Shown here: piece by piece, positions 10,632 to 40,453 of the stretch
Layout: each line of letters begins with the position of its first letter
How positions within the stretch are numbered: position 1 is the stretch's first letter
Assembly (NCBI GenBank): GCA_021813445.1
Contig: JAKAKP010000144.1
Location: 30,447 to 94,446 of the forward strand
DNA from: Deltaproteobacteria bacterium
Lineage (GTDB): Bacteria; Desulfobacterota; Desulfobaccia; Desulfobaccales; 0-14-0-80-60-11
Reading direction: 5' to 3'
DNA: 64,000 nt
Program-made: the position numbers and the translations under genes
The notes under the pieces: model-generated
Database searches by the model: none
Told to the model about the DNA's origin: nothing
The model's input: only the letters and a program-made list of their open reading frames with translations

Positions 10632-10664
10632 CGAGCCGCTGAAAAGCGGAGGTCGCCGAAAAAA

Positions 10665-10695
10665 GGAAAAGCCGCCTGGTCCAGGCGGCCTTTCC
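10665..10695. terminator. Candidate bidirectional terminator hairpin between convergent genes
   Basis: The hairpin is gaaaagccgcc-tggtcca-ggcggcctttc. The flanking A and T tracts are weak. Confidence 0.4.
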
Positions 10696-10731
10696 CCCAT
10701 CATTGACTCGGGCTGCTGTAGTCGCCCCGGA

Positions 10732-12754: not shown

Positions 12755-12785
12755 AAAAAAAAGGGCGGCCCCAGAAGCGCCGCCC
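12755..12785 (-). terminator. Rho-independent terminator of the spy/cpxP-like gene
   Basis: On the minus strand the sequence is gggcggc-gcttctggg-gccgccc followed by T8. Confidence 0.8.
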
Positions 12786-12811
12786 TCCCCTGGTTTTAAT
12801 CTGGGGGTGGC

Positions 12812-13294: not shown

Positions 13295-13481
13295 GTGCGA
13301 AATCTCCTCTTAATTTGCTCGCAAGATGGGGGAGCCGAGGTGCGGCTCTTACCCTATTAAACCCTGGACCCACCCCAATCCGGCGCGGGGGGAGAAAAAA
13401 AAGGGACCAGGGGTCAGGAAATGATAACTAGAGCCACTGCCCACTGATCACTGGAGATAAAGGGAGGAAAAATTACTGAGA

Positions 13482-14672
13482 TTACTTTTTCAGACGCAGG
13501 CGGCTGGTCAAACCCTCCAGGCGCTCGCGCCAATGAGGCCAGGAGACCGGCAGCACCGGCAGCTCCCGGACGGTGCGGTTCCAGAGGAAGAGGGCCACCC
13601 CGGCGAAAAGGAAATTGGAGATCCAGGGGGCCAAAAACGGGTTCAAGCGGGCACTGAAGGCCAAGCGCCAGGACGCGGTGAAGACTACATAATAAACCAG
13701 AAAAACCAGGAGGCCCAGGATCAGGCCCCAGGTGCGGCCGTGATGGCGGGGGCTCATCCCCAGGGGCATGGCGATGAGACACAGGAGGAGCGCACCGCAG
13801 GGCAGGGAAAATCTCCGGCTCAACTCCACCGCGTAGCGGATATGGTTATCCGAACCCGCGGGCGCCTGACGCAGGTTTTGCCATAATTCCCCCACATACA
13901 TCTCGTCTTCTGATTTCTTGCTCTTCATGCCAAAACTGAATAGGTTCAAAGGCAGCTGGTAGCTCTTAAATTCCACGGTTTGCCAGCGGGTCAGAGAAGT
14001 TCCCCAGCGCATCACCCGGCCATTCTCCAGATGGAGCACCAGGGTTTCCTGGGATTCATCGAAGGTCAATTGCCCCTTTTGGGCATAGACCGTGTTGGGA
14101 TTGTCCTTGTCCCGGGAGTCATAAATGAAGACGCCGTCCAATTGGCCGCCCTTGGGGGCCACATGGTTGACAAAGAGCATCAGCCCCTGGAAGTCCGTGT
14201 TAAAGACCTGCTCCTTAATGCCCAAATCAGCCCGGCGTTTGACCACTTCCATCATCAATTGCCGGGTGGCCTTTTGCCCCCAGGGACTGCCGTAAGCGGT
14301 GAAAAGCAGGGTCAGTATGGCAGTGGCCAGGGAAAAGATGAAAATCGGCGGCAGCAATTGGGTATAGCTCAGGCCCGCAGTCTTTAAGGCCACCACTTCC
14401 TGGTCCTCGGTTAGGCGCATGAGAGCCAGCAAGATCCCCACCGTCCCGGCCATGGGCAGAGTAAAGACCAGGAGATAGGGGAAAAGATAGGCGCAGGTTT
14501 TGAGCACCTCGATCAGGCCCACCCCCTTGACCACAATCATTTGGGTCACCCGCATCAGCCGGCCCAAAAAGACGATGGTGGTGAAAGCCAGCAGACTGGC
14601 GCCAAAGGGGGCCATAATCTCCTGGAGGAGATAACGGTAAATGATATAAGGCAGGGTCAAGGCGCGGCGCAT
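13482..14672 (-). CDS. LptF/LptG family LPS export permease
   Basis: The N-terminus IIYRYLLQEIMAPFGASLLAFT, the six-TM layout with a periplasmic beta-jellyroll insert, and the length all fit the YjgP/YjgQ family. Confidence 0.8.
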   Translation of the reverse strand: MRRALTLPYIIYRYLLQEIMAPFGASLLAFTTIVFLGRLMRVTQMIVVKGVGLIEVLKTCAYLFPYLLVFTLPMAGTVGILLALMRLTEDQEVVALKTAGLSYTQLLPPIFIFSLATAILTLLFTAYGSPWGQKATRQLMMEVVKRRADLGIKEQVFNTDFQGLMLFVNHVAPKGGQLDGVFIYDSRDKDNPNTVYAQKGQLTFDESQETLVLHLENGRVMRWGTSLTRWQTVEFKSYQLPLNLFSFGMKSKKSEDEMYVGELWQNLRQAPAGSDNHIRYAVELSRRFSLPCGALLLCLIAMPLGMSPRHHGRTWGLILGLLVFLVYYVVFTASWRLAFSARLNPFLAPWISNFLFAGVALFLWNRTVRELPVLPVSWPHWRERLEGLTSRLRLKK

Positions 14673-14679
14673 GGAGGTG

Positions 14680-16642: not shown

Positions 16643-17413
16643 ATGAAGGTGGTCATTTTAGCCGGTGGTCTCGGCACCCGGTTGGCAGAGGAGACCGAAG
16701 TCAAACCCAAGCCCATGGTAGAGATCGGCGGGCGCCCCATCTTGTGGCATATCATGAAGCTCTATGCCCATTACGGCTTCAACGAATTCCTCATTGCCCT
16801 GGGCTACAAAGGGGAGGTCATTAAGCGCTTCTTTCTGGACTACTACCGCATGAACGGCAGCATGACCATTAACCTCTGGAACGGCGATGCCCTCATGCAC
16901 CACAAAAAGGCGGAGGACTGGACGGTGCACCTTCACGACACCGGCATGAACGTCAACACCGGCGGCCGGGTCAAACGCCTGGAGTCCTGCCTGCGCAATG
17001 AGACCTTCATGGTGACCTACGGCGACGGCGTCAGCAACATTAATCTGGACGAACTGCTGAAATTTCACCACGCCCATGGCCGGTTGGCCACCGTCACCGC
17101 GGTGCGGCCCCCGGCCCGCTTCGGAGGCCTGATCTTCGACGGCGACATGGTGGCCCAGTTCACGGAAAAACCCCAGATCGGCGAAGGCTGGATCAACGGC
17201 GGTTTTCTGGTCTTCGAACCCGGGGTCTTCTCTTATTTGAAGGGAGATTTGGCCAGCCTGGAATCGGACGTCCTGGAGCAGTTGGCCGCGGAAGGGCAAC
17301 TGGCAGCCTATCGTCACGGCGACTTTTGGCAATGCATGGATACCCTGAGGGACAAGTTCCTGCTGGAAAACCTCTGGCAAAAGGGAGAACCCCCATGGCG
17401 GGTGTGGCAATGA
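16643..17413 (+). CDS. rfbF: Glucose-1-phosphate cytidylyltransferase
   Basis: [38 protein letters not shown] and overall colinearity with RfbF. There is an ATGA overlap with the next gene. Confidence 0.88.
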
Positions 17414-18432
17414 CCGCCGGGCAAACCCATTCCTTCTGGCAGGACCGCCCCACCCTGGTCACCGGGGCCACCGGTCTTTTAGGGGGCTGGCTGGTGCCGC
17501 GGCTGCTGGCTCAAGGTGCGGACGTGGTCTGCCTGGTGCGGGATTGGGTCCCCCAGAGCGCCTTAATTTCCGGCGACTGGCTCAATCGGGTCAAAACCGT
17601 CCGGGGGGAAATCGAGGATCAGGCGCTCCTGGAACGGGTGCTGGGGGAGTACGAGATCGACACCGTCTTCCATCTGGCCGCCCAGACCATAGTCGGCATC
17701 GCCAATCGCAACCCGGTGTCCACCTTTGCCTCTAATATCGGCGGCACCTGGGCCCTCCTGGAGGCCGCCCGGCGCAGCCCCGGGGTGCGGCAGATCGTCC
17801 TGGCCTCCTCCGATAAAGCTTACGGCGAGCACACCGGCGAGCCCTACCGGGAGGACAATCCCTTGCAGGGACGCCATCCCTACGATGTTTCCAAATCCTG
17901 CGCCGATCTCATTGCCCAGTCTTACGCGACCACTTACGGCCTGCCGGTAGCCGTCACCCGCTGCGGCAATTTTTTCGGCGGCGGCGACCTCAACTGGAAC
18001 CGCCTGGTGCCGGGGACCATTCGCGCCATTCTCCGGGGACAACCGCCGGTCATCCGTTCCGATGGCCGCTACGTGCGGGACTATTTCTACATCGAAGACG
18101 CCGCGGCCGCGTATATGCTCCTGGCCGAAAAGCTGGCGGCCCACCGGGAGCTCAAGGGTCAGGCCTTCAATTTTGCCCACGACACCACTTTGACGGTCCT
18201 GGAACTGGTGGAAGAGATCCTGCACCGCCTGGATTCCAGCCTGACCCCGGTGATCTTGAACGAGGTGCAAAGCGAAATCCTGTACCAGGCTTTGGATGCG
18301 GACAAGGCCCGCCGGGTGCTGGGCTGGCGGCCCAGGTTCTCCCTGGGGGAGGGCTTGACGCGGACCATCTCCTGGTACCGGGATTTTTTCGGGGCCGGGC
18401 AACCGCCGCTGCAGGCGGTTATGGGGAGTTAG
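17410..18432 (+). CDS. rfbG: CDP-glucose 4,6-dehydratase (SDR family)
   Basis: [20 protein letters not shown] and the YDVSKSCAD (YxxxK) motif are present, and the gene sits directly after rfbF. The start was placed at the ATGA overlap (17410). Confidence 0.7.
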
Positions 18433-18538: not shown

Positions 18539-19177
18539 ATGATAATTCGCCCCCTGCCAATAGACACCGCCACCTTGATTGAGGCCGAGCCCTTCGAGGA
18601 CCACCGGGGCCTCTTTGCCCGTTTTTTCTGCGCCCAGGAACTGGCCCAGATCTTGGGGGAGCGGCAGATCGTCAACGTCAATTTCTCCTGCACCCGCCAG
18701 GCCGGGGCGGTGCGGGGGATGCATTTCCAATTTGCCCCGCACCAGGAGATGAAGCTGGTGCGCTGTATCCGGGGGGCCGTCTTTGATGTGCTCGTGGACT
18801 TGCGGCCCTCGTCCCCCACTTTTCTTAAGTGGCACGGCGAAGTCCTGTCAGCCGCCAACTTGAGGATGCTCTGCGTGCCTGAGGGGTTTGCCCATGGGTT
18901 CCAGGCCCTGGAGCCCGACAGCGAGGTGCTTTACCTCACCACTGCGTTTTACCAGCCGGACGCGGAAGGGGGCCTCCGCTACGACGACCCGGCCCTGGGC
19001 ATTGAGTGGCCCCGGGAGGTCACGGATATCTCCCGGAAAGACGCGGCCCATCCGCTCCTGCAACCGGGGCAGCAGCCCTTGGAGAGGAATGGGGCGGAGC
19101 GCGGCCCCTGGACTTTAGGATCTAAGGAATCGGTGGGCAGTGCCCACCCTACATTAACTTTGAACTTTGAACCTTGA
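18539..19177 (+). CDS. RmlC-like NDP-4-keto-6-deoxyhexose 3,5-epimerase (cupin)
   Basis: Blocks FEDHRGLFARFF, RGMHFQ, FDVLVDLR and VPEGFAHGF are present. The last ~30 aa are a non-conserved extension that runs through a REP hairpin (VGSAHPTL). Confidence 0.8.
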   Translation: MIIRPLPIDTATLIEAEPFEDHRGLFARFFCAQELAQILGERQIVNVNFSCTRQAGAVRGMHFQFAPHQEMKLVRCIRGAVFDVLVDLRPSSPTFLKWHGEVLSAANLRMLCVPEGFAHGFQALEPDSEVLYLTTAFYQPDAEGGLRYDDPALGIEWPREVTDISRKDAAHPLLQPGQQPLERNGAERGPWTLGSKESVGSAHPTLTLNFEP

Positions 19178-19202
19178 ACTATTTGAAAGAACAGGAGCAA
19201 GC

Positions 19203-20072
19203 GTGAAAGTCTTGGTGAGCGGCGCCACGGGGTTCATTGGCCAGCAGGTCGTGCCCTTCCTGCAGGGCCTGGGCCGGTGCCGCATCCTCGCCAGCGCCAG
19301 GGATGAAGCCAAGCTCCAGGAACTGGGTGCGGATTATGTTGTCTATGACCTCAATCAAGAGCCCCATGATTGTTACGAGCGGCTGGGGCGGCCGGAGGTC
19401 TTGATCCACCTGGCCTGGGAGGGTCTGCCCCATTACCAGGAATCCTTTCACCTGGACCGCAACCTGGTGAACCATTACCGGTTTTTGCAAAGCATGATTG
19501 CGCAAGGGTTGCCCAGCCTGACAGTCACGGGCACCTGCTACGAATACGGGTTGCACAACGGCTGCTTGCCGGAAGAGACGGCTCCCAACCCCACCACCTG
19601 TTACGGCCTGGCCAAGGATGTCCTGCGCCGCCGCCTGGAGGCCCTGCAACAGCAGCATCCCTTCCGGCTGCGCTGGCTCCGCCTTTTCTTTCTTTATGGC
19701 CCAGGCCAGCCGGAACGGACCCTGATGGCCAAAGTGGACCAGGCCCTGGACACAGGGCAGGAGACCTTCGATATGTCCGGGGGCGAGCAGCTCCGGGACT
19801 ATCTCTCCGTGACGGAGGTCGCGGCCCTGATCGCCAAAGTGGCCCTGCAGCCGCGCTATGACGGGATTTTCAACATCTGTTCGGGGCAGCCCATTTCGGT
19901 GCGCCGCCTGGTAGAGGAGCATATCGCCGCCAGGGGCGGCCGGCTGCGCCTGAACCTGGGGGTCTTCCCCTACCCGGCCCATGAACCCCTGGCCTTCTGG
20001 GGCGACCCCAGCCGGCTGCGCCTCGCCGTAGCCGCATTTGAGGAGGAACAGCACCATGCCGCACACCCCTGA
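19203..20072 (+). CDS. NAD-dependent epimerase/dehydratase family 4-ketoreductase
   Basis: GTG start with an AGGAG RBS five nt upstream. VKVLVSGATGFIGQ is the Rossmann motif and the protein is of the RmlD/SDR type. Confidence 0.7.
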   Translation: MKVLVSGATGFIGQQVVPFLQGLGRCRILASARDEAKLQELGADYVVYDLNQEPHDCYERLGRPEVLIHLAWEGLPHYQESFHLDRNLVNHYRFLQSMIAQGLPSLTVTGTCYEYGLHNGCLPEETAPNPTTCYGLAKDVLRRRLEALQQQHPFRLRWLRLFFLYGPGQPERTLMAKVDQALDTGQETFDMSGGEQLRDYLSVTEVAALIAKVALQPRYDGIFNICSGQPISVRRLVEEHIAARGGRLRLNLGVFPYPAHEPLAFWGDPSRLRLAVAAFEEEQHHAAHP

Positions 20073-21324
20073 ATCGAGGCTAACAACCGTAACCGACCGC
20101 CTCCGGGACCGGGAGGTCTACCTCTGGGGAGCCCGTCAAGACGGCCTGAGCATGTGCCGGGTCCTGGAGCGCCAGGGGCGGCGGCCCGCAGGTTTCATCG
20201 ACAGCAGCGTCTCCCTCCAGGGGAAAACCGTCCTGGAGTATCCGGTCAAGGCACCGGCGGAGATCCTCAAGCATAACGGCCACCGGCCCTATATCATCAT
20301 CACCTCCGGCTTTTTCGCGGACGAAATCGCGCTCCAATGCCAGGACGCGGGTTTCACCACGCCCGAGGATTTCATCACCTTCTCGGAAATTCAGCGCTTC
20401 GACTACCAGATCGATATTTCCGGGGCCTGCAACCTCCGCTGCATCTCCTGCCCCCGGGGGAATTTTTCTCCCCAGCCCCGGGCCGGTTTCATGACCGCGG
20501 CCATCTTTGAGCAGGTCCTGGCCAAGATCCTCCGGGAAGACCCCTTTGTGGGCGCGGTCAGCCTCTATAACTGGGGCGAACCCTTGCTAAATCCGGATCT
20601 GGCCGCGATCATCCGCCACGCCAACGCCAAAGGGGTGCACACCGCGGTCTCCAGCAACCTCAATATCCGCAAGGACTTTGCCGAGGTCATCGCCGCCCGC
20701 CCCACCTGGTTCCGGGTCTCGGTGTCCGGCTCCGGGGCCAACTACGAAACCACCCATACCGGCGGTTCCTGGGACCTGTTTCTGAAAAATCTGTACCGGC
20801 TGCGGCAGTTGCAGACGGAACTCCACCCGGACCTCCAGGTGGAAGTCTTTTATCATATCTACCGCCATAACAATGGCGAGGATTTCCGGCTGCTGCAACG
20901 GCTCTGCGAGGAACTTGACTTTACCCTGCGCTTTCGCCACGCGGCCCTGGCCCCCCTGGAAAACATCGAAGCCGTCATCGACGGCAAGCCGCTCAATCCC
21001 CAGGTGCAGCGCACCATGGAGTTGCAGGCCCTGCCGGTCCCGGAAGCCATGGAGATCGCCCGCAGCCAAAAGGACCGGCCCTGCTTTTACGAGCGCTGCC
21101 TCTGGATCACCTGGGACCTCAAGGTGAGCCAGTGCATGGAATGGTTTGACCCCAAGCTCCTGCTGGTGCCGGGGGATTTTTTGTCCACCCCCATGGCAGA
21201 AATCGAAGCTGCCAGGAAGAACAACGCCTTTTGCCGCCACTGTAAGGAAAAGGCCATTCACCGCTGCTACGCGGTTTACGGCGACGAAAAGCTGGTGCAC
21301 GAGCGCCAAAGCGTGGCTTTGTAA
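20056..21324 (+). CDS. Radical SAM enzyme, paralog 1 (N-terminal Rossmann-like module, C-terminal Cys-rich auxiliary-cluster region)
   Basis: CNLRCISCP (CxxxCxxC), YNWGEPLLNP, SSNLN, YHIYRHN, and C-terminal Cys residues (PCFYERC, SQC, CRHC). [10 protein letters not shown] before the ATG at 20056. Confidence 0.8.
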   Translation: MPHTPESRLTTVTDRLRDREVYLWGARQDGLSMCRVLERQGRRPAGFIDSSVSLQGKTVLEYPVKAPAEILKHNGHRPYIIITSGFFADEIALQCQDAGFTTPEDFITFSEIQRFDYQIDISGACNLRCISCPRGNFSPQPRAGFMTAAIFEQVLAKILREDPFVGAVSLYNWGEPLLNPDLAAIIRHANAKGVHTAVSSNLNIRKDFAEVIAARPTWFRVSVSGSGANYETTHTGGSWDLFLKNLYRLRQLQTELHPDLQVEVFYHIYRHNNGEDFRLLQRLCEELDFTLRFRHAALAPLENIEAVIDGKPLNPQVQRTMELQALPVPEAMEIARSQKDRPCFYERCLWITWDLKVSQCMEWFDPKLLLVPGDFLSTPMAEIEAARKNNAFCRHCKEKAIHRCYAVYGDEKLVHERQSVAL

Positions 21325-21337
21325 GGGAGATGCCGTG

Positions 21338-22621
21338 ATGTCGGAATCGAGGCTGAGTTCCACCCCCTTGCAACACCTGAACGGCAGCCGCCCCATTTAT
21401 CTCTGGGGCGCCAGCCAGGCCGGCATGGGCATGCTCTACGCCCTGCGCCGCCAGGGTGTTGACATTACCGGTTTCATCGATAAGCGCAAGGCCCTCCAGG
21501 GCGGCGCCATTTACGACCAGCCGGTGTACAGTCCGGAAGAGGTCTTATACGGGCCGCGGCGGGCCTCCAGGCCTTTCATCATCAACACCACCTTCCAGCA
21601 TAAAAATGAAATCAGCGCGGTCTGTGAGGCCGCGGGCCTGCTCCCCGGTGAGGACTACCTCTATTATGAGGAATTGAGCCCCTTCGATTACCAGGTGGTG
21701 GTCTGCGGCATCTGCAACCTCCGCTGCATCTCCTGCCCCATGGGGAATATGCCGGCAAAGGAGCCCGCGGGCATGATGTCCGCGGCCACCTACGCCCGGG
21801 TCCTGGACAAAATCCTCCAGGAGAATCCTTACCTGGGCATCATCCAGCTCTACAACTGGGGGGAGCCCCTCCTTAATCCGGAGCTGCCGGAAATCATCCG
21901 CCTCACCAATGAGCGGCAGGTGCTTTGCGCGGTCTCCAGCAACCTGAGCCTGACCCGGGATTTCGAGGAAGTCATCCGAGCCCGGCCCGGCTGTTTCCGC
22001 ATTTCTTTGTCAGGTTGGGGCGAAACTTACGCCATCACCCATACCAAAGGCAATTGGAGCCTGGTGCTAAAAAACATGCGTCGCCTCAGTGAGCTGCGGG
22101 CCCGGCACTGCCCGGAGATGCCCGTGGAGGTCACCTACCATCTCTACCGGCACAACCAGAACGACGCCATGAAGATCGGGCTTTTATGCGCGGAGTTGGG
22201 TTTTGTCTTCCGGCCCCACATGGCCGCACTCCTGCCGTTGGATAATGTTGTCACCTATATTAACGGCGGCCAATTGACCCCGGCGGCGGAACAGACCCTG
22301 GAAATCCTGCTCCTCCCCATCGACCAGGCCGTGAAAATGGCGGCCGGGGAAAGACACCTGGCCTGTAATTTTGAGCACGCCATCAATATCGATTGGGACC
22401 TGACCGTCAAACACTGCGGCTTGTACTACAGCCGCGCCGATAACCAGGCTGCGGACTCTTATCTGGAGACCTCTCTGGCCGAGATTATAGCTCGGCGCCG
22501 GACCAGCCGGTTGTGCCGTACCTGTCGGGGGAAAGGCCTCCATCGGTTCTGCCGCCTCTATACCAGCGAGACCCCCGAACTCGAAGAACAAACTCATACC
22601 ATCAGGGAAGCTGCCTCATGA
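21338..22621 (+). CDS. Radical SAM enzyme, paralog 2
   Basis: The same architecture with CNLRCISCP, YNWGEPLLNP, YHLYRHN and CRTC. AAGGGAGA RBS before the ATG at 21338. Confidence 0.8.
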   Translation: MSESRLSSTPLQHLNGSRPIYLWGASQAGMGMLYALRRQGVDITGFIDKRKALQGGAIYDQPVYSPEEVLYGPRRASRPFIINTTFQHKNEISAVCEAAGLLPGEDYLYYEELSPFDYQVVVCGICNLRCISCPMGNMPAKEPAGMMSAATYARVLDKILQENPYLGIIQLYNWGEPLLNPELPEIIRLTNERQVLCAVSSNLSLTRDFEEVIRARPGCFRISLSGWGETYAITHTKGNWSLVLKNMRRLSELRARHCPEMPVEVTYHLYRHNQNDAMKIGLLCAELGFVFRPHMAALLPLDNVVTYINGGQLTPAAEQTLEILLLPIDQAVKMAAGERHLACNFEHAINIDWDLTVKHCGLYYSRADNQAADSYLETSLAEIIARRRTSRLCRTCRGKGLHRFCRLYTSETPELEEQTHTIREAAS

Positions 22622-23910
22622 CCACGGAAAGAACGGCTGCCATCAAGTGTATGGACCTTAACGACCTGGAGGCGCTGCGCCGGGGCCGCCCCGTGTATCT
22701 CTGGGGCGCGTCCATCGTCGGCCACGGCGTCTGCCGGGCTCTGGAGCGCAGCGGCCTGGCCCCGACGGCCTTTCTCGACCGCAGCCCCCGTCTGCGGGGC
22801 AAAAAGGCCCTGGACTACCCGGTCTGGCCCCCGGAGGCCCTGCTGGAGCAGGCCGACGCCCGGGAGAAAGCCTTCATCATCATCGCCTCGGGGCATTATG
22901 AGGATGAAATCGCGGGCAACTGCCGGGAGGCTGGCCTGGAACCGGGGCAGGACTTCATCTCCTCCCGGGCCCTGTCTCCCCTGGACCCCAGTGTGGACAT
23001 CGCCGGGATTTGCAACCTCCGCTGTATCAGTTGTCCCCGGGGCAATATGGCCGAAAAGCCTCCCAAGGGGTTCATGACTCCCGCCACCTTCGAGCTGGTG
23101 CTGGACAAGTTGCTCAAGGAGCTGCCTTTCTTGGGCAATATCCAGCTTTATGCCTGGGGGGAGCCTTTGTTGCACCCCCAGATAGCCGAGATCATCCGCC
23201 TGACTCGGAAGCGCCGGCTCCTGAGCGCCATTTCCACCAACCTGAACGTGCGCCGGGACCTCACCGAGGTGATCCAGGCGCAGCCCGACTGGCTGAAAAT
23301 TTCCGCGTCCGGCTTCGGGGCCAATTACGAGATGACCCATACCGGCGGCAAATGGGACCTGTTCTATAGCAACCTCTTCCGGCTCCAGGAGTTACGGGAA
23401 CGCCACCACCCCAGCATGTATGTGGAGATGAACTACCACCTCTACCGCCATAACCTGGGGGAGGACTACCGGCAAATGGCCCAACTCTGCCAGAAGCTGG
23501 GGTTCGCATTCCGTCCCAATTGGGCCTATCTCTATCCCCTGGACAACGTTCTGGCCTATTGCCAGGGACAGCCCCTGAGCCCGGAGGCCGAACGCACCCT
23601 GGACCTCTTGCTGTTGAGTCTGGATCACGGTCTGGCCCGGGCCCGCAGCCAGGCCCATCTGCCCTGTGCCGAGGCCCGCTGCTTTCCCATTGCCTGGAAT
23701 CTGAACGTGCGTTCCTGCGGCGCGTTTTTTCTCCCCACCGTGGTGGACAACTTTCTGGAAGTGCCTCTCCCGGAAATCCTCCGCCGCCGGGACGCCAGCG
23801 GTATTTGCCAGGAATGTCAGCGCCATGCCCTGCATCGCTTCACCAGCGTCTATCTGGAGGAGGCCATGCCCATTGCTGCCGGCGCCACCCAGCAAGGAGC
23901 CACAGGCTGA
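22618..23910 (+). CDS. Radical SAM enzyme, paralog 3
   Basis: The same architecture with CNLRCISCP, YAWGEPLLHP, YHLYRHN and CQEC. ATGA overlap with paralog 2. Confidence 0.8.
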   Translation: MTTERTAAIKCMDLNDLEALRRGRPVYLWGASIVGHGVCRALERSGLAPTAFLDRSPRLRGKKALDYPVWPPEALLEQADAREKAFIIIASGHYEDEIAGNCREAGLEPGQDFISSRALSPLDPSVDIAGICNLRCISCPRGNMAEKPPKGFMTPATFELVLDKLLKELPFLGNIQLYAWGEPLLHPQIAEIIRLTRKRRLLSAISTNLNVRRDLTEVIQAQPDWLKISASGFGANYEMTHTGGKWDLFYSNLFRLQELRERHHPSMYVEMNYHLYRHNLGEDYRQMAQLCQKLGFAFRPNWAYLYPLDNVLAYCQGQPLSPEAERTLDLLLLSLDHGLARARSQAHLPCAEARCFPIAWNLNVRSCGAFFLPTVVDNFLEVPLPEILRRRDASGICQECQRHALHRFTSVYLEEAMPIAAGATQQGATG

Positions 23911-25178
23911 TGCAGACCTTCCAGGCACATAGTCGGATTCGCCCGGTCCTGGAGCGCCTCTCCGGACGCCCGGTCTATATCTGGGGTGCAGGGCAGCAGG
24001 GCCGGGGCATGGGCCGGGTGCTGGAACGCCAGGGGGTAGAGCTCCGGGGCTACTTGGATTCCAGCCCGCAGTTGCACGGTCGCTCCGCCTTGGGCTATCC
24101 CATCTCCCCGCCCGAGGCGGTCCTGCAGCCCGCCGTCCCCAACGGCAAACCCTTCGTGATCATTGCCTCCTTTTTCTTTGAAAAGGACATCATGGAGCGC
24201 TGCCGCCTGGCCGGCCTGGAAGCAGAGCGCGATTTCATCTCCTACAAGGACCTGAAACCCTTCGATTATGCCATCGACGTCTCCGGGGCCTGCAACCTGC
24301 GCTGCCTCTCTTGCCCCCGGGCCACCCGCAGCCACCGCCACCCGCCGCCGGGGTTCATGACCCCCGGCGTTTTTACCCAGGTCCTGGATAAGATCCTGGA
24401 CGAAGACCCCCTGGTGGGCAATCTCCAGCTTTATCAATGGGGCGAGCCCCTGCTCAACCCCCAGCTGCCGGAAATCCTGGGCCTCGCCAACGCCAGGGGG
24501 CTCCCCTGCGCCCTGTCCAGCAACCTGAATTCCACGACCAACCTGGAGCCGGTCATTGCCGCAGGCCCGGCCTGGTTCCGTATCTCCGTCAGCGGCGTGG
24601 GCCGGGAATACGAGCGCACCCATACCGGGGCCACTTGGGCCAAGTTATTGAAAAACATGGAAAGCCTGGCCGAGTTGCGGGCCCGCCTGCGGCCGGACAT
24701 GAAGACCGAGGTCTACTACCATCTCTACCGCCACAATCGGGACGGCTCCCTGGACGAAGTGAAGCGGCTGTGCGAGCGCTTCGAGTTCGAGCTCCACCCG
24801 GTCTGGGCTTATCTCATCTCCCTGGACGACGTGCTGGAATATCTCGAAGGCGGCGAACTCACCCCCCAGGCCCAAGAGGCCGCAGAGATGCTGGCCCTGG
24901 GTCTGGAGCAAGGCATGGCCCTGGCCCGCAGGGAGATTCGGGAAAAGTGCCTGGTGGACCGGTGCATCCATGTCAATTGGAACCTCACGGTGAGTAACTG
25001 CATGATGTTCTTTTATCCCCAGGACAATATTGCCGCGGCCAATTTTCTGGAAACGCCCCTGGAAGAGATTTTGTCGACCCGGGTCAAAAGCAGCCTCTGC
25101 CGGCGCTGCCGGGCCCAGGCCCTGCACCGCTACTGCAACGTCTACAATACCGAACAGATCGAAGGAGCCGCCGCCTGA
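23910..25178 (+). CDS. Radical SAM enzyme, paralog 4
   Basis: The same architecture with CNLRCLSCP, YQWGEPLLNP, YHLYRHN and CRRC. TGATG overlap with paralog 3. Confidence 0.8.
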   Translation: MQTFQAHSRIRPVLERLSGRPVYIWGAGQQGRGMGRVLERQGVELRGYLDSSPQLHGRSALGYPISPPEAVLQPAVPNGKPFVIIASFFFEKDIMERCRLAGLEAERDFISYKDLKPFDYAIDVSGACNLRCLSCPRATRSHRHPPPGFMTPGVFTQVLDKILDEDPLVGNLQLYQWGEPLLNPQLPEILGLANARGLPCALSSNLNSTTNLEPVIAAGPAWFRISVSGVGREYERTHTGATWAKLLKNMESLAELRARLRPDMKTEVYYHLYRHNRDGSLDEVKRLCERFEFELHPVWAYLISLDDVLEYLEGGELTPQAQEAAEMLALGLEQGMALARREIREKCLVDRCIHVNWNLTVSNCMMFFYPQDNIAAANFLETPLEEILSTRVKSSLCRRCRAQALHRYCNVYNTEQIEGAAA

Positions 25179-25179
25179 A

Positions 25180-26649
25180 ATGAGCACGATCTTACATATC
25201 ACCCCCCACCTGGGGGGCGGGGTCGGCCGGGTCCTCCGGAATTTTTTGACCTACAGCCGGGATCATTCCGCGGATACTCACCGTCTGGCCTGCCTGGATT
25301 ACGCCAACGCCCCCTCCCAGGCCTGGGCCGCGGCCGCAGGGATCGACTTGAGCGACAACCTGGCCTGGCGTCTGCCGGCATTGCTGGAGATGGTGGCCGC
25401 CGCCGACCTGGCGGTGGTCAACTGGTGGAACCACCCCCTGCTCTTCGACCTGCTGGTGCGCCACCCCTTGCCGCCAGCCCGGGTGCTCCTGTGGTCCCAC
25501 GTTTCCGGGCATACGCCGCCCCAAAATTTTTCCCGGGCCTTGCTGGATTATCCGGACCTCTTCGTGGTGGCCACCCCTTACAGCTTCGAGGCCCCCGCCA
25601 TCCGCCGCCTGCCCCGGAAAAAACGGGAGGCCAAAGTGCGGCTGGTTTTCAGCTGTGCCGGGATCGACCACGTCGCCCAGGCCAGCCCCCGGCCCCATGC
25701 CGGTTTCCGCATCGGCTACATCGGCACGGTGGATTATGCCAAGATGCACCGGGATTTCCTGCAGATGAGCGCCGCGGCCCGGATTCCCGGGGTGCGCTTT
25801 GTGGTTTGCGGCGGCCCCAGTGAGGAGGCCATCCGCCGGGAAGCTCTAGCGGCCGGCATTGCCGAGAAATTTTATTTTCTGGGCCAGGTCGATGATGTCG
25901 CCCAGGTGCTGGCCGACCTGGACGTCTTCGGCTATCCCCTGGCCCCGGGCCATTACGGCACCGGCGAGCAGGTCCTGATCGAGGCCCTGGCCGTGGGAGT
26001 GCCGCCGGTGGTCCTGGATAACGGCCCGGAAGGCCACGTGGTTGCGGACGGCGTCACCGGTTTGGTGGTGCAAAATAGCCGGGAGTATACCGTAGCCCTG
26101 GAGCGGCTCTTCCGGGAACCGGCCTGGCGCCTGCGCCTGTCGGAAAACGCCCGGCGCCACGCCCGCCAGAGATTCACCATCGCCCAGACGGCCCAGGCCT
26201 GGCAGGCCCTTTTCCAGGAGGCCCTGGAGTTGCCCAAGAGCCCCCGGGCCTGGCCTCAAAAGAACGGCGGCGCCACCGCGGCCGAGGTCTTTGTAGCCGC
26301 ACTGGGGGAAGAAGCCAAAGAATTTGCCCGGAGCCTGGACCAGGACCAACTGAAGCGGGCCCTGGCCGCGGATCGGCGCATCGCCCGGAAGCCCGGTCTC
26401 TTCCGCAGCGCTACTCGGGGCAGCGTCTTCCATTACCAGTCGTTTTTTCCGGACGACCCGTATCTCAACCTCTGGGCGGGGCTCATGCTCCTGGCTGACG
26501 GCGACCCCGTCAAGGCCCGGGAGCGCTGCGCGGCCGCGCAAAGCCTTTTGCCGCCCTGGCGTCTCTCCCAGTATCTGCGGAAACTGGGCATCCCGGCGGG
26601 CGACACCCGGCCCCGGGAGAGCGCGGCCCCTTGCCGCGCCTCGGCCTGA
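25180..26649 (+). CDS. GT-B glycosyltransferase (GT4/Glycos_transf_1-like) with a C-terminal extension of about 130 aa
   Basis: MSTILHITPHLGGGVGRV at the N-terminus and the E-x7-E-type block GEQVLIEALAVGVPPVV...VTGLVV. The start is 1 nt after the upstream stop codon. Confidence 0.75.
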   Translation: MSTILHITPHLGGGVGRVLRNFLTYSRDHSADTHRLACLDYANAPSQAWAAAAGIDLSDNLAWRLPALLEMVAAADLAVVNWWNHPLLFDLLVRHPLPPARVLLWSHVSGHTPPQNFSRALLDYPDLFVVATPYSFEAPAIRRLPRKKREAKVRLVFSCAGIDHVAQASPRPHAGFRIGYIGTVDYAKMHRDFLQMSAAARIPGVRFVVCGGPSEEAIRREALAAGIAEKFYFLGQVDDVAQVLADLDVFGYPLAPGHYGTGEQVLIEALAVGVPPVVLDNGPEGHVVADGVTGLVVQNSREYTVALERLFREPAWRLRLSENARRHARQRFTIAQTAQAWQALFQEALELPKSPRAWPQKNGGATAAEVFVAALGEEAKEFARSLDQDQLKRALAADRRIARKPGLFRSATRGSVFHYQSFFPDDPYLNLWAGLMLLADGDPVKARERCAAAQSLLPPWRLSQYLRKLGIPAGDTRPRESAAPCRASA

Positions 26650-26712
26650 CCGCAGCTCTTGGGGGACGATTTTAGCAAGTATGCACCTGAACGACCGTAT
26701 AAGGGGAATAAT

Positions 26713-28155
26713 ATGAAAATCCTACTCATCCCGTCCTACACGCTGGATTCCGTTACCCGGGTGGGGCGCACCCCGCCCTTGTCTCTGCTTTTCCTGGCCG
26801 CGGTTTTGCGCCAGGCCGGGCACGAGCCCCGGATCCTGGACTTGGATTCGCTCCCCGCCCCCCGGAACCTGGACCGGGAAACCTTTTATCTGCAAACCGT
26901 GCTGGCAGCGGTGGCGGAGCAGCGTCCCGGGATGGTGGGGATCAATTGTCTGCTCACCACCCATTTCCCCTTTGTGCGGCGCACCGCCGAGGCCATCAAG
27001 GCCCGGCATCCCTCCCTGCCTCTGGCCATCGGCGGCATCCATCCCACCTTGTTCGCCCGGGAGATCCTGGAGCATTGTCCGGCCATCGACGCCATCGCCC
27101 TGGGGGAGGGGGAAGATCAGGCGGTGGCCCTGGCCCAGGCCTTTGCCCAGGGCAACCGGACCGCTCTAGGCCATATCGAGGCCCTGGCCTTCCGGGACCA
27201 AAACGGCGCGGTGCAGGTCACCCCCCGCCGGGGCTACATCAAAGATCTGGACCGGCTGCCGGCTCCGGCCTGGGACCTGATCCGCCTGGAGGACTACTAC
27301 ACCGATCATTCCACCTGGTACAACCCCCGGGGCCTGGAGATCAAGATGTCCATCCCCATCCTCTCCAGCCGGAGCTGCCCTTACAATTGCAGCTTCTGCT
27401 CCGCCCACAAGATGATGGGCCGGGGCCACCGCCTCCGCAGCCCGGAGCTGGTGGTGGACGAAATGCAGATGCTCTATGAGCGTCACGGCATCAATTATTT
27501 CGGCTTTGTGGACGACAATCTCACCCTGAATAAACCGCACATCCTGGCGATTTGCCGGGAGATCGTGCGCCGCGGCCTGGTCATCCAGTTCGAATCTTTC
27601 AACGGCTACAACCTCAACTCCCTGGATGAGGAGATCATGGAGGCCATGGTGGAGGCCGGCTGTGTTTACGTCATCCTCCCCATTGAACACGGCTCCGACC
27701 GCATGCGCCAGGAAATCATCGGCAAAAAGATCAGCCGGGGAAAAATCTTCCAGGTGGCGGAACTCTGCAAGCGCTATGACCTTCTGACCAGAGGGGTCTT
27801 CATCATGGGCTTTCCGGAGGAGACCCGGGAGACCCTGACCGACACCTATAATATGATCCACGACCTGCAGCTGGACATGAACCTGGTCTTCAATCTCATC
27901 CCCTATCCCGGGACCAGGATCTTTCAGCAGGCCCTGCGGGATAACCTCTTTTTAACTGAAATCGACGCCGGACGGCTCTGGGACGGCACCTGGGACCTGA
28001 ACGCCCTCCAGAGCCAATTCTATCTCCGGCCTTATCACCTGAGCCTGGAGGATTTGCAGGAGTTTCGGGAAAAGTTTGACGCCCTCAAGTTCTTTTCGCC
28101 CCGGGCCCAGGCGTTGCAGGCCCCCAGGACTCATGAGCATGTGCTCCAGACTTGA
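26713..28155 (+). CDS. B12-binding-domain radical SAM enzyme (class B)
   Basis: N-terminal B12-binding-like fold (MKILLIPSY...LSLLFLAAVLRQAGHEPRILDLD) and the SRSCPYNCSFCS radical SAM motif. AAGGGG RBS before the start. Confidence 0.8.
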   Translation: MKILLIPSYTLDSVTRVGRTPPLSLLFLAAVLRQAGHEPRILDLDSLPAPRNLDRETFYLQTVLAAVAEQRPGMVGINCLLTTHFPFVRRTAEAIKARHPSLPLAIGGIHPTLFAREILEHCPAIDAIALGEGEDQAVALAQAFAQGNRTALGHIEALAFRDQNGAVQVTPRRGYIKDLDRLPAPAWDLIRLEDYYTDHSTWYNPRGLEIKMSIPILSSRSCPYNCSFCSAHKMMGRGHRLRSPELVVDEMQMLYERHGINYFGFVDDNLTLNKPHILAICREIVRRGLVIQFESFNGYNLNSLDEEIMEAMVEAGCVYVILPIEHGSDRMRQEIIGKKISRGKIFQVAELCKRYDLLTRGVFIMGFPEETRETLTDTYNMIHDLQLDMNLVFNLIPYPGTRIFQQALRDNLFLTEIDAGRLWDGTWDLNALQSQFYLRPYHLSLEDLQEFREKFDALKFFSPRAQALQAPRTHEHVLQT

Positions 28156-29344
28156 AACCAGCCGCGCCTTAACCAGGCCCTGCCCGCAGTGCAGCGGCCG
28201 CCGGGGCCGGGAGCTCAGTCGGCTGCGCTTCCAGGGCTTCGACGACTCACCCCTGGCCGGGGCCTTCTCCCTGGCCGTCTGTGCGGAATGCGGCGCGGCT
28301 TTTTACGATACACCTTCGCAGCAAAGCGATTACGACCGGTATTACCGGGGCAACGCCTATTACTTCACTTCGGCCGCCAGCGGTAGCGGCGGTGCCACGC
28401 CCGCAGACCGGCGGCGTTTTGCAGAACTAGCCCGGCGTCTGGTCCCTTATCTGCCCCGGCAGGACGCGGCCATCTTTGACGTGGGCTGCGCCAAGGGCGG
28501 CCTCCTGGCAGTTCTGGCGGAGCACGGCCATACCCGTCTCTACGGCGTGGACCTGATGCCCGCCTGTATTGATTATGTCCGGAACCACCTGGGGCTGGCC
28601 GCGGACTTCGGCTCGGCCTTGGATCTCCCCTTTCCGGAAGTCCGGGCCGATGTCTTGATTTACTCCCATATCGTCGAGCACGTCATCGACTTGCCCGCGC
28701 TGCTGGCCGCGGCCCGGGAGAAGCTGAGTGACCAGGGGCTGGTCTATGTGGAAGTGCCGGACGCGTCCCGTTACGGGGAAAATTCCCGTTATCCCTACCG
28801 GGACCTGTACCTGGAGCACGTCAACCACTTCGACCGGGACACCCTGGTCGGCCAATTCCAGGCCGGGGGCTTCTCCCTGGTGAGCAGCGGCGGCTTTCTC
28901 CTGGAGCCTTTGCCCCAGGGTCCCGTGCCCTGTCTCTGGGCCATCTTCCGCCGGGGGGATGAGCAGAAACGAACCGCAAGCAACGGTCTGGAAGGGCGGC
29001 TCCGGGACTACCTGGCCTGGTCCCGGCAGCATCCGGCCCTGGGAAAAATCGCCCAACTGGCCTGGCAGCAAACCCCCCTTTACCTCTGGGGGCTCTCCCA
29101 ATACGCCATGCTCCTGCTGGGCCAAACCGACTTGGGCCGCTGCGCCCTCCAGGGGTTGGTGGACCAGGACCCTTACAAGCAGCAGCGGACGGTGGGCGGG
29201 AGGCCGATCCACGCCCCCGAGGTTTTACGGGAGGCCGATCCCCGGGCCGCGGTCCTGGTCACGGCCCTGGGGTACGAGGACCAGATCGCCGCGGCCCTGG
29301 AGGAGATGGGCTTTCGCGGCCTAGTGGTGACGACTGCGGGCTGA
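28133..29344 (+). CDS. Zn-ribbon class I SAM-dependent methyltransferase with a C-terminal Rossmann-like module
   Basis: CPQCSG...CAECG zinc ribbon, IFDVGCAKGG methyltransferase motif I, and a C-terminus (PLYLWGLSQYA...YEDQIAAALEEMGF) homologous to the N-termini of the four radical SAM paralogs. The layout resembles sugar C-methyltransferases. Confidence 0.7.
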   Translation: MSMCSRLETSRALTRPCPQCSGRRGRELSRLRFQGFDDSPLAGAFSLAVCAECGAAFYDTPSQQSDYDRYYRGNAYYFTSAASGSGGATPADRRRFAELARRLVPYLPRQDAAIFDVGCAKGGLLAVLAEHGHTRLYGVDLMPACIDYVRNHLGLAADFGSALDLPFPEVRADVLIYSHIVEHVIDLPALLAAAREKLSDQGLVYVEVPDASRYGENSRYPYRDLYLEHVNHFDRDTLVGQFQAGGFSLVSSGGFLLEPLPQGPVPCLWAIFRRGDEQKRTASNGLEGRLRDYLAWSRQHPALGKIAQLAWQQTPLYLWGLSQYAMLLLGQTDLGRCALQGLVDQDPYKQQRTVGGRPIHAPEVLREADPRAAVLVTALGYEDQIAAALEEMGFRGLVVTTAG

Positions 29345-29430: not shown

Positions 29431-30222
29431 ATGGAGACAAATATGTCATATCATAACCAGATCATGGAAGATGCGGGCTTCGAGAAGCAAAAATGGCTGA
29501 TCAACCTGCTGCAACGGGAAAATGTCACCGTCGTCGACGTCGGCGGCCATGTCGGTGAAAGCATCGAAGAATATCGGACGCTATTTCCAGACTGCCGCGT
29601 CTATTCCTTTGAGCCCCATCCCGAATCTTTCATTACCCTGGAACAGCGCTGGGGCCGCTTAAACGGCGTCCACGTCGAGCGGCTGGCATTGGGCGCCAAG
29701 TCCGGAGCCGTGTCTTTTTACGCCACCAGATGTTCTTCCGCTTCCTCCTTGCTGCCCCCGGAAGGCTTCCTCCAGGAACGCAGCGCCAAAAGAAATTATG
29801 ATTATTTGAAAATGGAAGTGCCCATGGACACTTTGGACCACGTCGCCGCCCGCCTTTCTTTGAGCGGCATCGATATTTTGAAAATGGACGTCCAGGGCTC
29901 GGAACTGCAGGTTCTACAAGGCGCGGCAGGCCTCCTGCGGGCATCGCAGATCGACCTTATCTTCTCTGAAGCCCTGTTCGCTGAAACCTATGCGGGGCAG
30001 AGTGATTTTAATGAAATTTGGAGTTACCTAAAGAATTACGGGTATGTGCTTTGGGACCTGTTCCCCTTTGTCCATACGACCCTGGGCCGGTTGTGGACCG
30101 CCAACGCCATCTTTCTAAGCGCCCCCATTGCCGCCCAAATCGACCGCTGCCATCCGCCTGTCTCACCCAGGCCTGCGGACCAAATGGAGTATGGTGCCAA
30201 GAATCTTGCTGATCATTTCTAG
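29431..30222 (+). CDS. FkbM family methyltransferase
   Basis: VVDVGGHVGESIEEY...VYSFEPHPESF...LALGAKSG...LKMDVQGSE is the characteristic FkbM pattern. Confidence 0.8.
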   Translation: METNMSYHNQIMEDAGFEKQKWLINLLQRENVTVVDVGGHVGESIEEYRTLFPDCRVYSFEPHPESFITLEQRWGRLNGVHVERLALGAKSGAVSFYATRCSSASSLLPPEGFLQERSAKRNYDYLKMEVPMDTLDHVAARLSLSGIDILKMDVQGSELQVLQGAAGLLRASQIDLIFSEALFAETYAGQSDFNEIWSYLKNYGYVLWDLFPFVHTTLGRLWTANAIFLSAPIAAQIDRCHPPVSPRPADQMEYGAKNLADHF

Positions 30223-30245: not shown

Positions 30246-33200
30246 ATGCAAGGCCATGAGATTAACCAACACCCCCTGGTCTCCATCGGCATGTTGGTTT
30301 ACAACGGCGAACGATTCCTGGCGCAATCACTCGAATCACTGCTTTCCCAAGAATATAAAAATTTTGAACTCATCATCTCGGACAATGCCTCGGAAGACCG
30401 CTCCGGGGAGATCTGTTTAAAATACCAGGCCCGGGACTCCCGCATTCAATACTCCCGCAATGAAACCAATATGGGGTCAATCTACAACGGCACCAAGGTC
30501 AGGGACCTGGCCCGGGGCAAATACTTCATGTGGGCCTCCGATCATGACCTCTGGCATCCCACCTTACTGACCAAGGCCGTGGCAGTTATGGAAAATGATC
30601 CAGAGGTAATCTTGTGCTATTCCCGGGCCCAGCGGATCGATAAAGAGGGCAATTTCCTCTGCCTGGGCCCCGACTATTTGGATACGCGAGGCATGTCGCC
30701 GCCGGCGCGCTTTCTCCATCTCATCGGTTACCATTGCGGCGGCGAATTGATTTATGGACTTTTCCGCCGGGAAAACCTCAGTCGTATCAAAACGAAAGCA
30801 ATTTGGGCCTCAGATATTTATATCTTATCGGCTTTAGCCCTGGAGGGCACTTTCGTCCACCTGCCCGAGGTGCTTTTTTCCTTGCGCAAGATCCGGGATG
30901 AAGAGATAGAAAGCCACAAGAAGACCCAGGCCCACAACCTGGACCCGGCCAGGACCAAGGAAATGCTGGCCATGGACCTGCATGCGCTCTGGCGGGAATT
31001 GGGGGAAGAATGCCTGTCCGTGGTACAAGGCAGTTCCTTCCCGGACCTGGAGAAAGAGGTTCTGCTGGAGGAAACCAAGAACTGTTTTACCACGCGTTTT
31101 GAGGTGCAATGGCCAGGCTCCCCGGAGGCTGCCGAAAACAAGGGCATCCGTGGCCAGGTTGACGCCCCCGCCCTCCTGACCGATACCGCCGCCAAAGAAG
31201 CCTGGAGAGAACGCCGCGCCGCCAGGCTGGCCCGCAAGGAGGCGAAACAAAGAATTGTGGAGGAGGCAATGCGGCGGCGGCAATATTGGGGGGGACAATG
31301 GCCCCTGGTCTCGGTGATCGTCCCCACTTACAACCGGCCGGATACCCTGGGGGCCGCCCTGCAAAGCATCCTCAATCAAACTTATAAGAACCACGAAGTC
31401 ATCGTGGTCAACGACGGCGGCCTGGACGTGAGCGGCATCGTGGGCTGGCTCAATCAGCAGGGCAACATCACCTACGTCCAGCATGACCGCCGCCGAGGCC
31501 GGGCCGCGGCCTGCAATACCGGCCTGAAACTGGCCCGGGGCCAATATATCGCTTACCTGGATGATGACTCCCTCTTCTACCCCGAGCACCTGGCGGTTCT
31601 GGCAACCGTGCTGGTGGACAGCGAGTACCGGGTGGCTTACACAGACGCGCTTCGGGCCCGTTTAGAGAATCAATGCGGCCGGAATGTGGTCGCCGCCAAA
31701 GACCTGCCTTATTCATATGAGTTTGATCAGGAGCGGTTGCTGGTGGCTAACCAGTTTCCGAGCCTCTGTCTCATGCACGAGAGATCCTGCCTGGAGCAAG
31801 CCGGCCTCTTCGATGAAAGCCTGAGTAGCCATGAGGATTGGGATTTATTGATCCGGCTTTCTTTCCGCGATAAATTTTTCCACATCAAACGGGTCACCTG
31901 CGAGTTCACCCAGGGCCAGGAAGACGACGCCACGGTCGGCCAGAAGCAGGCGGATCTCGTGCGCACCATGGAAATCGTCCATGGCAAGTATCAAGATCAC
32001 CTGCAGGACAAACCGCAGATTCAGGAGCAGCAACGGCAATTCTTGCAGCATCAAAAAGATGCCGCCCAAAGGACCTGCGCCGGATCCAGGCCTGAGACCC
32101 CCAACCCGGATCAACTGCTGCAATTGACCAATGAGGCCCTGGAGCGGGAGGACTGGGAAGCCGCGGAAACCTGTCTCCGGGACCTGATCCGCAGCCACCC
32201 GGACCTTCTGGATGGTTACCTCTCTTTGAGCGACGTCCTCACCTTGCAGGGGAAAGATCAGGACGCCAGGGAAGTCTTGCGGGCCGCCCGGGAGCTGGCC
32301 CCCGAGGCCCTGCCCCTGCTGAAGCGCCTGGGCGCCAATTGCCGGAAGCGGGGTGACTTCAGCGGCGCCTTGACCGCGTTTACCAAGGTTTTGGAGCACA
32401 CCCCCAGAGATACCGAGGCTCTCTGCCAATTAGGCGCCACTTACCTCGATCTGGGGCTCTTGCAGGAGGCCCAGACCCATTTAACCGCAGCGCTGCAGAT
32501 CAATCCCACGAATCTTGATGCCCGGAAGTTACTGGCCCAGGTGGCCCAATACCTGGCAAGTGGCGAGACCTCAGACCCGGTCTCCTCCCAGGCCCCCGCG
32601 CCTGATGCCGGGCACCGCGCTCCGGAAAAGACCGGGACCGGCCAAGCCGGGGAATTCGTCAATATCTGCATGGTTACTTATAACCGCTTGGATTTCACCA
32701 AACAGGCCATCGACGCCCTGGTCCGGCTTACCCACTATCCCTATGTGTTGACGGTGGTGGACAACGGCAGCACCGACGGCACTCCGGCGTATCTGGAAAG
32801 TCTCAAGGCCCGGGGAGTAATTAAAAACCTGATCCTGCTGGATGAAAACCTGGGAGTGGCCAAGGCCTCCAACCTGGCTTGGAGCCTGGAGCCGGAAGCC
32901 GCCTGCTATCTCAAGCTGGACAATGACATCATCCTGCAAAAGGATGGCTGGCTGGAAGACATGGTGGCGGTGATCAATCAGGTGCCTGAAATCGGCGTCC
33001 TGGCTTACAGTTTCGAGCCCCGCTCCTACCCGCTGGAAGTGTGGCACGACGTGACGATACGCATCAAAAAGGGCACCCTGGGGGGGGCCTGCCTGCTGAT
33101 CCCCAAACGCACCGAACGTCTCTTGGGGTATTTTTGCGAAGAATACGGGCTTTACGACGAAGAAGATGCGGATTACGGGGTGAGAGTCCTGGCTGCCAAC

Positions 33201-39616: not shown

Positions 39617-39631
39617 TTAATTTTTATTACT

Positions 39632-39989: not shown

Positions 39990-40453
<464 letters not shown>

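Follow-up and report, generated by a model that had tools for sequence, protein, structure and literature searches.

A Rossmann-like module shared by tandem radical SAM paralogs and a C-methyltransferase in a CDP-sugar cassette of a Deltaproteobacteria bacterium

Why should four radical S-adenosylmethionine (SAM) enzymes and a mechanistically unrelated methyltransferase of one operon all carry the same small domain? The question is raised by a 64,000-nucleotide stretch of a Deltaproteobacteria bacterium genome (assembly GCA_021813445.1, contig JAKAKP010000144.1, positions 30,447 to 94,446), here called the window. An initial annotation of this DNA had described five copies of one module, four of them N-terminal on radical SAM paralogs and one C-terminal on a methyltransferase. 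A permissive scan of all open reading frames (ORFs) of the window with a module hidden Markov model (HMM) returned exactly these five, all on the + strand, at 88-118 bits; no sixth or hidden copy was found in that scan, the next ORF reaching only 4 bits. The four radical SAM genes, rS1 to rS4, lie in tandem at 20056..25178 (+ strand), and each encodes the module, a BtrN-like core with the motif CNLRCxSCP, and a Cys-rich C-terminal region. The first copy (20107..20385; 102.0 bits) forms the N-terminus of rS1 (gene 20056-21324), in which the CX3CX2C motif follows the module. The second (21386..21673; 87.9 bits) belongs to rS2 (21338-22621), the third (22681..22971; 118.1 bits), which was used for modelling, to rS3 (22618-23910), and the fourth (23964..24251; 98.7 bits) to rS4 (23910-25178). 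The fifth (29069..29335; 108.4 bits) is the C-terminus of a Zn-ribbon class I C-methyltransferase, here MT (28133-29344). The module is about 85-98 residues long.

The first issue was whether the five copies are truly related. Both peptides quoted in the initial annotation were found as written, at residues 314-393 of MT and 24-107 of rS3. An HMM built from the four radical SAM N-termini alone matched MT residues 312-395 at 29.8 bits (E = 1.3e-7), against a top score of 7.5 bits among 5000 shuffled MT sequences. By BLASTP, MT was 27-30% identical to each radical SAM paralog over 80-99 residues. Two family profiles were then built separately from homologs of each enzyme (124 radical SAM N-termini and 61 MT C-termini), and hhalign aligned them over 85 columns with a probability of 98.9% (E = 3.8e-17). 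The shuffles and the independent profile-profile alignment rule out a chance or compositional similarity, and the homology of the five copies, proposed from their alignment, was confirmed.

What kind of domain is it? The AlphaFold2 model of the rS3 copy, computed from a 71-sequence alignment that spans both the radical SAM subtype and the MT subtype, had a mean predicted local distance difference test score (pLDDT) of 96.3 and a predicted template-modelling score (pTM) of 0.88. It shows alternating strands and helices, and its top fold matches are Rossmann-like nucleotide-binding domains, as the annotation's description of the module had anticipated. The first Foldseek match against the PDB was VioB with its dTDP-sugar (E = 1e-4; query TM-score (TMq) 0.67), and the highest TMq (0.73) was that of 3nkl, a WbpM-type N-terminal domain. 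Other matches included Rex-family NADH-binding domains, the PglB acetyltransferase domain (PglB-ATD), PerB and, at rank 20, 2g6t, an uncharacterised Clostridium protein that may perhaps be the 'C2185' protein. Compared with PDB chains by sequence, the module profile matched 3nkl best (2.9e-6), then a DapB-like reductase (2.7e-4), VioB (8.2e-4), and Rex (8.8e-4).

The curated families gave a consistent picture at low scores. Pfam Methyltransf_14 (PF08484) matched the MT copy at 19.6 bits (E = 8.6e-4; profile positions 62-149 of 160; gathering cut-off 23.5), or at E = 1.2e-4 when the MT module was scanned alone, and gave no match to the four radical SAM copies in the Pfam scan. Relatives do lie above this cut-off, for example protein P0184 (42.4 bits) and a B12-binding radical SAM enzyme at locus L008 (29.2 bits). 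The NeuD model TIGR03570 matched all four radical SAM copies at 17.9-21.4 bits (E = 1.6e-4 to 1.8e-3; cut-off 160.8), including residues 21-85 of rS1; this is a whole-protein model of which only the N-terminal positions 2-85 match the module. Pfam PglD_N (PF17836) stayed short of its family threshold (E = 0.059). Precomputed annotations give a weak match to PF22674 (C2185-like_N) for homologs of the methyltransferase as well as of the radical SAM enzymes; it was absent from the Pfam scans run in this analysis even at E<=10. The comparators that had been proposed (NeuD/PglD N-domains, CoA_binding_3, and Methyltransf_14 C-domains) thus proved to be the nearest relatives by profile and by Foldseek. 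In shuffle-controlled tests, the radical-SAM-only profile scored 17.5 bits on VioB and 16.9 on 3nkl (shuffle maxima 7.7 and 5.7), and the MT-type profile scored 24.5 bits on 3nkl, 13.1 on VioB, 9.9 on MtmC and 5.7 on KijD1 (shuffle maxima 4.6-7.7). By sequence, then, VioB and 3nkl resemble both subtypes more closely than do the C-domains of actinomycete C-methyltransferases with crystal structures. We conclude that the module is no new domain but a divergent member, scoring below threshold, of the Rossmann-like superfamily that comprises PglD_N/NeuD-N, CoA_binding_3 (3nkl), Methyltransf_14 and C2185-like_N.

The known members of this superfamily differ from the present enzymes. [quoted passage not shown] The module also scores far under the cut-offs of that family, and its GxGxxG-like loop has not kept all of the second and third glycines. 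The WbpM/CapD-type N-domain (3nkl; CoA_binding_3-like), which is the best sequence-profile match in the PDB, and C2185-like_N have no defined function of their own.

MT (403 residues; 28133..29344, + strand) combines a four-Cys Zn ribbon, a SAM domain and the C-terminal module, and the model of the full-length protein (METHYLTRANSFERASE) reached a pLDDT of 93.6. Its Foldseek matches were MtmC (E = 2.4e-23) and then KijD1 and TcaB9 (down to 1.5e-20), over 422-437 aligned columns with TM-scores of 0.65-0.69; the matches that follow (about 1e-10) span the methyltransferase core only. The MT family profile likewise matched MtmC (4.2e-18), KijD1 (5e-14) and TcaB9 (8.7e-14), with alignments that extend through the module. 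Among 55 MT homologs, the zinc-ribbon cysteines C17/C20/C50/C53 and the pairs E182-H183 and E228-H229 are invariant. The catalytic residues are kept, since H183 and Y226-L-E228-H229 of MT align with H183 and Y224-D-E226-H227 of KijD1; the TcaB9 counterparts (H181, Y222, E224, H225) are the residues mutated in PDB entries 4e2w, 4e2x, 4e2y and 4e2z, according to the entry titles. Judged by its residues and its modelled fold, MT is a distant but complete three-domain NDP-sugar C3-methyltransferase of the TcaB9 type, with predicted activity; it has the same architecture and catalytic residues as TcaB9, KijD1, MtmC and TylC3. Its module is accordingly the ordinary C-terminal domain of that family, which covers it at Methyltransf_14 positions ~60-149, whereas in the radical SAM enzymes the module sits N-terminally instead. 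The TcaB9 C-domain is understood to help hold dTDP. In a Pirellulaceae cassette (L003 15629-16897, - strand), a canonical Methyltransf_13 + Methyltransf_14 C-methyltransferase stands beside a module-bearing methyltransferase; this canonical enzyme went undetected by the module HMM at E<1e-4, so the two types of C-domain are widely diverged.

If the module is a nucleotide-binding fold, which part of it has been kept? In a set of 71 diverse modules, invariance is confined to W8, G9, and D33, and P51 and I77 come close to it. W8-G9 follow strand 1, and D33 stands at the end of strand 2. In a check of the GxGxxG-like loop, the radical SAM type read G-A-x-x-x-G-x-G and the MT type kept the first Gly only, while the Asp was invariant in both. 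Profile alignment places module G9 on Gly8 and D33 on Asp32 of VioB, and Lys38 of the MT type (in D-x-D-P-x-K-Q) on VioB Lys37. The N-terminal domain of VioB holds dTDP, with Gly8 at a distance of 3.8 A from the ring oxygen of the ribose, Gly11 adjoining the beta-phosphate, Asp32 and Lys37 hydrogen-bonding the ribose, and the Asn33 backbone binding the thymine (PMC9271549). Because G9 and D33 occupy the ribose-contact positions of VioB, the conserved part common to both subtypes corresponds to the nucleotide-ribose site.

The reading that we favour, with moderate confidence and from residue alignments and models, is that the module binds the nucleotide handle (probably CDP) of 6-deoxyhexose intermediates in activated form, so that the catalytic domain fused to it is offered the sugar. 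Its grip on the nucleotide would come from the Gly that follows strand 1 and the Asp that ends strand 2, and the catalytic domain would receive the sugar much as with the N-domain of PglD or VioB. Five different catalysts could then process intermediates that bear the same handle: MT would act as a C3-methyltransferase on a 4-keto sugar by enolate chemistry, and the BtrN-like radical SAM enzymes, as three or four distinct catalysts, would act on same-handle intermediates. The opening of the operon was counted for a CDP-sugar handle: a glucose-1-phosphate cytidylyltransferase (16643-17413; TIGR02623 at 366.5 bits, over the cut-off of 300.25) is followed by a probable CDP-glucose 4,6-dehydratase (ORF 17326-18432, true start uncertain; best match TIGR02622 at 217.5, under the cut-off of 278.45) and an RmlC-type 3,5-epimerase (18539-19177; TIGR01221 at 163.1, over the cut-off of 155.75), all on the + strand. 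An NDP-sugar as the ligand, CDP as its nucleotide and the chemistry of the radical SAM enzymes are inferred; all five enzymes may act on one scaffold. The common substrate-recognition role suggested in the initial annotation is thus favoured by the ribose-site Gly/Asp match to VioB, the CDP-glucose genes and the varied fusions described below, with docking and the binding of another nucleotide standing as rivals.

The distribution of the module bears on these rivals. An exhaustive search with the module profile found 9,802 representative clusters at E<=1e-3, of which 1,136 were at E<=1e-10. Partner domains were counted on the best 103 module proteins of at least 170 residues and comprised the class I methyltransferase domain (63), radical SAM (9), FkbM (7), glycosyltransferase family 2 (GT2; 6-7) and family 4 (GT4; 5). 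Methyltransf_14 was matched by 44 of these 103 closest proteins at E<=1e-3 (best 2.8e-18). In cassettes related to that of the window, the fusion partners are FkbM methyltransferases, B12-radical SAM enzymes, a second radical SAM family, GT2, GT4 and HAD proteins. The module is C-terminal on B12-binding radical SAM enzymes (L008 3283-5106, L018 15823-17766) and N-terminal on FkbM methyltransferases and on the second, unrelated radical SAM family; the loci also listed for these last two fusions are L023 7493-8638, L007 17515-18663, L021 19604-20860, L017 11390-12649 and L032 19608-20873. Such varied partners fit a substrate-handle domain that is independent of the catalyst.

The same partners could also be taken to mean that the module has another nucleotide ligand, for example NAD(P)H, SAM or S-adenosylhomocysteine, or 5'-deoxyadenosine, and serves as a cofactor, redox or regulatory site. 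Most of the partners counted above (methyltransferase, radical SAM and FkbM) are SAM-dependent, the Rossmann domains of Rex, DapB-like reductases and an amine dehydrogenase are among the best sequence or fold matches, and MtmC, a structural relative of MT, uses either SAM or NADPH (PMC10269268). However, MT already has a complete SAM-binding domain, its module type has lost the GxGxxG-like loop, the GT2, GT4 and HAD partners use neither SAM nor NAD, and the closest relatives from sugar pathways bind their substrate NDP with this very domain (PMC9271549). We regard this explanation as unlikely.

A third possibility was that docking or oligomerisation is the main task of the module, which would assemble the tailoring enzymes into a multi-enzyme complex, with nucleotide binding lost or secondary. 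Rex-type relatives are dimers, and this was counted in its favour. The conservation of the cassette was relevant here and was followed by scanning one genome per species, which gave 504 relatives of the radical SAM enzymes; the fetched loci were re-scanned with three HMMs, one each for the module and for the radical SAM and methyltransferase cores. At least 41 non-redundant species-level loci carry module-bearing radical SAM genes. Among 41 loci, 18 have three such genes, 10 have four, 2 have five, 2 have two, and 9 have one, and a module-bearing methyltransferase lies within 10 kb in 28 of the 41, many contigs being truncated. The order rS1-(rS2)-rS3-rS4 recurs in about 25 loci, rS2 being an optional fourth type present only in some. 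The set lies downstream of CDP-glucose genes, and the conserved surroundings run from NDP-sugar genes through the radical SAM set and GT4, which always comes after that set, to often a B12-radical SAM gene and then the methyltransferase; the gene order of the window (rS4, GT4, B12-radical SAM, MT) is repeated in L001, L003 and L004. Between three and seven module-bearing proteins co-occur per cassette, and the rS1-rS3-rS4 triad is kept as a fixed set, as would be expected of a hetero-complex.

Multiple modules in one protein speak in the same direction. Two to four tandem modules were found in 30 of 140 module proteins. Proteins made of two modules alone (P0183, P0186, P0187, P0204), and the three to four tandem copies found on GT4/GT2 or HAD proteins (P0205, P0225, P0299), could serve as scaffolds. 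On the other side, the Trp-Gly and Asp that are invariant in both subtypes fall on the nucleotide-ribose positions of VioB, which is unexpected for a pure interface at 20-25% identity. It was therefore considered improbable that docking is the main role.

Several observations weigh against the nucleotide-handle reading. The B12-radical SAM and FkbM enzymes of this window are without the module. The MT-type module has no glycine-rich loop, and the radical SAM type has no Lys equivalent to VioB Lys37. Simple substrate binding offers no obvious account of the module-only tandem proteins and the glycosyltransferases with three to four copies. The NAD(P)-binding domains of Rex and DapB-like proteins score about equal to VioB both by profile and by fold. 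The radical SAM-type profile misses the C-domains of MtmC (0.5 bits) and KijD1 (-1.2), with neither score above the shuffles, and the MT-type profile detects these C-domains marginally. Finally, all five copies of the window lie under the curated threshold of every Pfam and NCBIfam model. This last point could also suit a structural relic that stabilises the attached catalytic domain and has no ligand or docking role of its own, as could the invariant C102 in the last helix of the radical SAM-type module, which could tie the module structurally to an Fe-S site. Nevertheless, ~9,800 clusters and repeated independent fusion to at least seven types of catalytic domain, at both termini, indicate a portable and selected function, and we hold a relic to be the least probable of the explanations considered.

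All four radical SAM paralogs carry CX3CX2C as CNLRC[IL]SCP, with C132, C136 and C139 invariant, and match Pfam Radical_SAM at 29.1-40.1 bits; none reached any NCBIfam family at its cut-off, and none matched Pfam SPASM. In the C-terminal half of the four types, C291, C350, C367, C397, C400, and H406 are invariant and C355 is nearly so. The nearest solved enzyme to the core is BtrN (E = 1.9e-8), a twitch-domain radical SAM dehydrogenase of butirosin biosynthesis with a carbohydrate-like substrate, and its twitch CxxC aligns weakly with C397/C400. BtrN differs in having no N-terminal Rossmann-like module and in acting on a free aminocyclitol; identity to the rS1-rS4 set is low, and the Cys pattern differs, the latter set having seven extra conserved cysteines and a His. 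The seventh of these is Cys102 (rS3; window 22921-22923), which is invariant in the last module helix of the radical SAM type, including its equivalents in rS1, rS2 and rS4, and is Ala in the MT type. Together, the seven Cys and one His would be enough for one or two auxiliary Fe-S clusters, and Cys102 of the module may, going by its conservation, contribute a cluster ligand in the radical SAM type.

For the radical SAM genes, an origin by recent tandem duplication was ruled out, as each type is 45-74% identical across species and 44-46% identical to its neighbours, with the order conserved. Judged by this divergence, rS1-rS4 are orthologue groups of ancient origin. The same radical SAM core, at 33-35% identity, occurs without the module in the single genes of a sister clade (L045-L072), in which the protein begins at CX3CX2C or a tetratricopeptide repeat (TPR)-like N-terminus replaces the module; examples are L045 9932-11086, L061 9476-10903 and L069 8504-10903. 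Its hosts include Thioploca, Beggiatoa, Methylococcales, and Rhodospirillales. Since the core of this clade stands alone or behind a TPR N-terminus, the idea that the module belongs integrally to the radical SAM core was likewise ruled out. The module is an addition outside the catalytic core, and the BtrN-like core gained it in one clade.

Carriers of the module-bearing radical SAM cassette are found in Desulfobacterota, Chromatiales (Thiorhodococcus, Allochromatium), Competibacter, Planctomycetota and Fibrobacterota, and further in Mariprofundus, Methylococcaceae, Marinitoga (Thermotogota), Patescibacteria and Bacteroidia. The nearest match to the window was a Deltaproteobacteria metagenome-assembled genome (91%). 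Cultured carriers, which make the question testable, include Thiorhodococcus minor DSM 11518, Allochromatium warmingii DSM 173 and Marinitoga lauensis.

How much of this is new? The novelty of the module itself was largely removed by its membership in an annotated superfamily and by its being the standard C-terminal domain on a TcaB9-type enzyme; neither the module nor its place on the methyltransferase is new to biology. What appears to be undescribed is its fusion to the N-terminus of a BtrN-like radical SAM core, along with the recurrence of such genes as a conserved triad or tetrad in a CDP-sugar cassette. No curated family covers the module-radical SAM fusion, and the literature searched on the domain families and on TcaB9, KijD1 and MtmC, a search that did not extend to the primary TcaB9, KijD1 and PglD structure papers, gave no link to radical SAM enzymes. 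Radical SAM chemistry on nucleotide-activated sugars is rare, DesII being the classic case, and here a C-methyltransferase, a B12-radical SAM enzyme and glycosyltransferases are conserved alongside a set of radical SAM enzymes, each apparently built for holding an NDP handle. More tentatively, and with the balance of probability leaning the other way, rS1-(rS2)-rS3-rS4 could represent an unrecognised pathway in which three or four different radical SAM enzymes, every one with a nucleotide-handle domain, perform successive radical reactions on the CDP-activated sugar itself before its transfer by GT4, with the module as a general nucleotide-sugar recognition element.

An analogy may be drawn with the recognition element (RRE, PqqD-like) of ribosomally synthesised and post-translationally modified peptides, a small accessory domain that occurs on unrelated tailoring enzymes of one cluster, radical SAM enzymes and methyltransferases included, and binds a common substrate handle. 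The likeness is functional only and implies no homology, the RRE being a winged helix that binds a leader peptide and the module a Rossmann-like domain that presumably binds a nucleotide. If the handle model is true, the presence of the module predicts an NDP-sugar substrate, a rule by which thousands of unannotated tailoring enzymes among the ~9,800 clusters could be given a substrate.

The remaining genes of the operon, all on the + strand, were assigned as follows. A short-chain dehydrogenase/reductase family reductase/epimerase (19167-20072; Pfam) precedes rS1. Between rS4 and MT lie the GT4 glycosyltransferase (25180-26649; Pfam Glycos_transf_1) and the B12-binding radical SAM enzyme (26713-28155; Pfam B12-binding + Radical_SAM), both without the module; residues ~350-489 of GT4 (26230-26646) form a C-terminal extension of ~140 residues with no Pfam match. 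MT is followed by the FkbM methyltransferase (29431-30222; Pfam Methyltransf_21) and by a 1875-residue multi-GT2/TPR protein (30246-35873; from the ORF list). The rS2 stop overlaps the rS3 start (22618-22621), the rS3 stop abuts the rS4 start (23907-23912), and MT starts 23 nt within the B12-radical SAM gene (28133-28155); these overlapping and abutting genes suggest translational coupling across the cassette. The gene for the 1875-residue protein contains an internal duplication of ~0.93 kb (33564-34487 and 34800-35720; 75% DNA identity), by which the giant protein carries two similar GT2 + TPR-like units.

No tRNA genes were found anywhere in the 64-kb window, and the GC content is 0.47 at window positions 38001-40000 compared to about 0.60 elsewhere. 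The cassette points to a heavily modified envelope sugar. Upstream, on the - strand (8071-16503), lie a formyltransferase, an LptF/LptG permease and an ArnT/PMT-like glycosyltransferase, neighbours that place the cassette in an envelope- or lipopolysaccharide-related neighbourhood.

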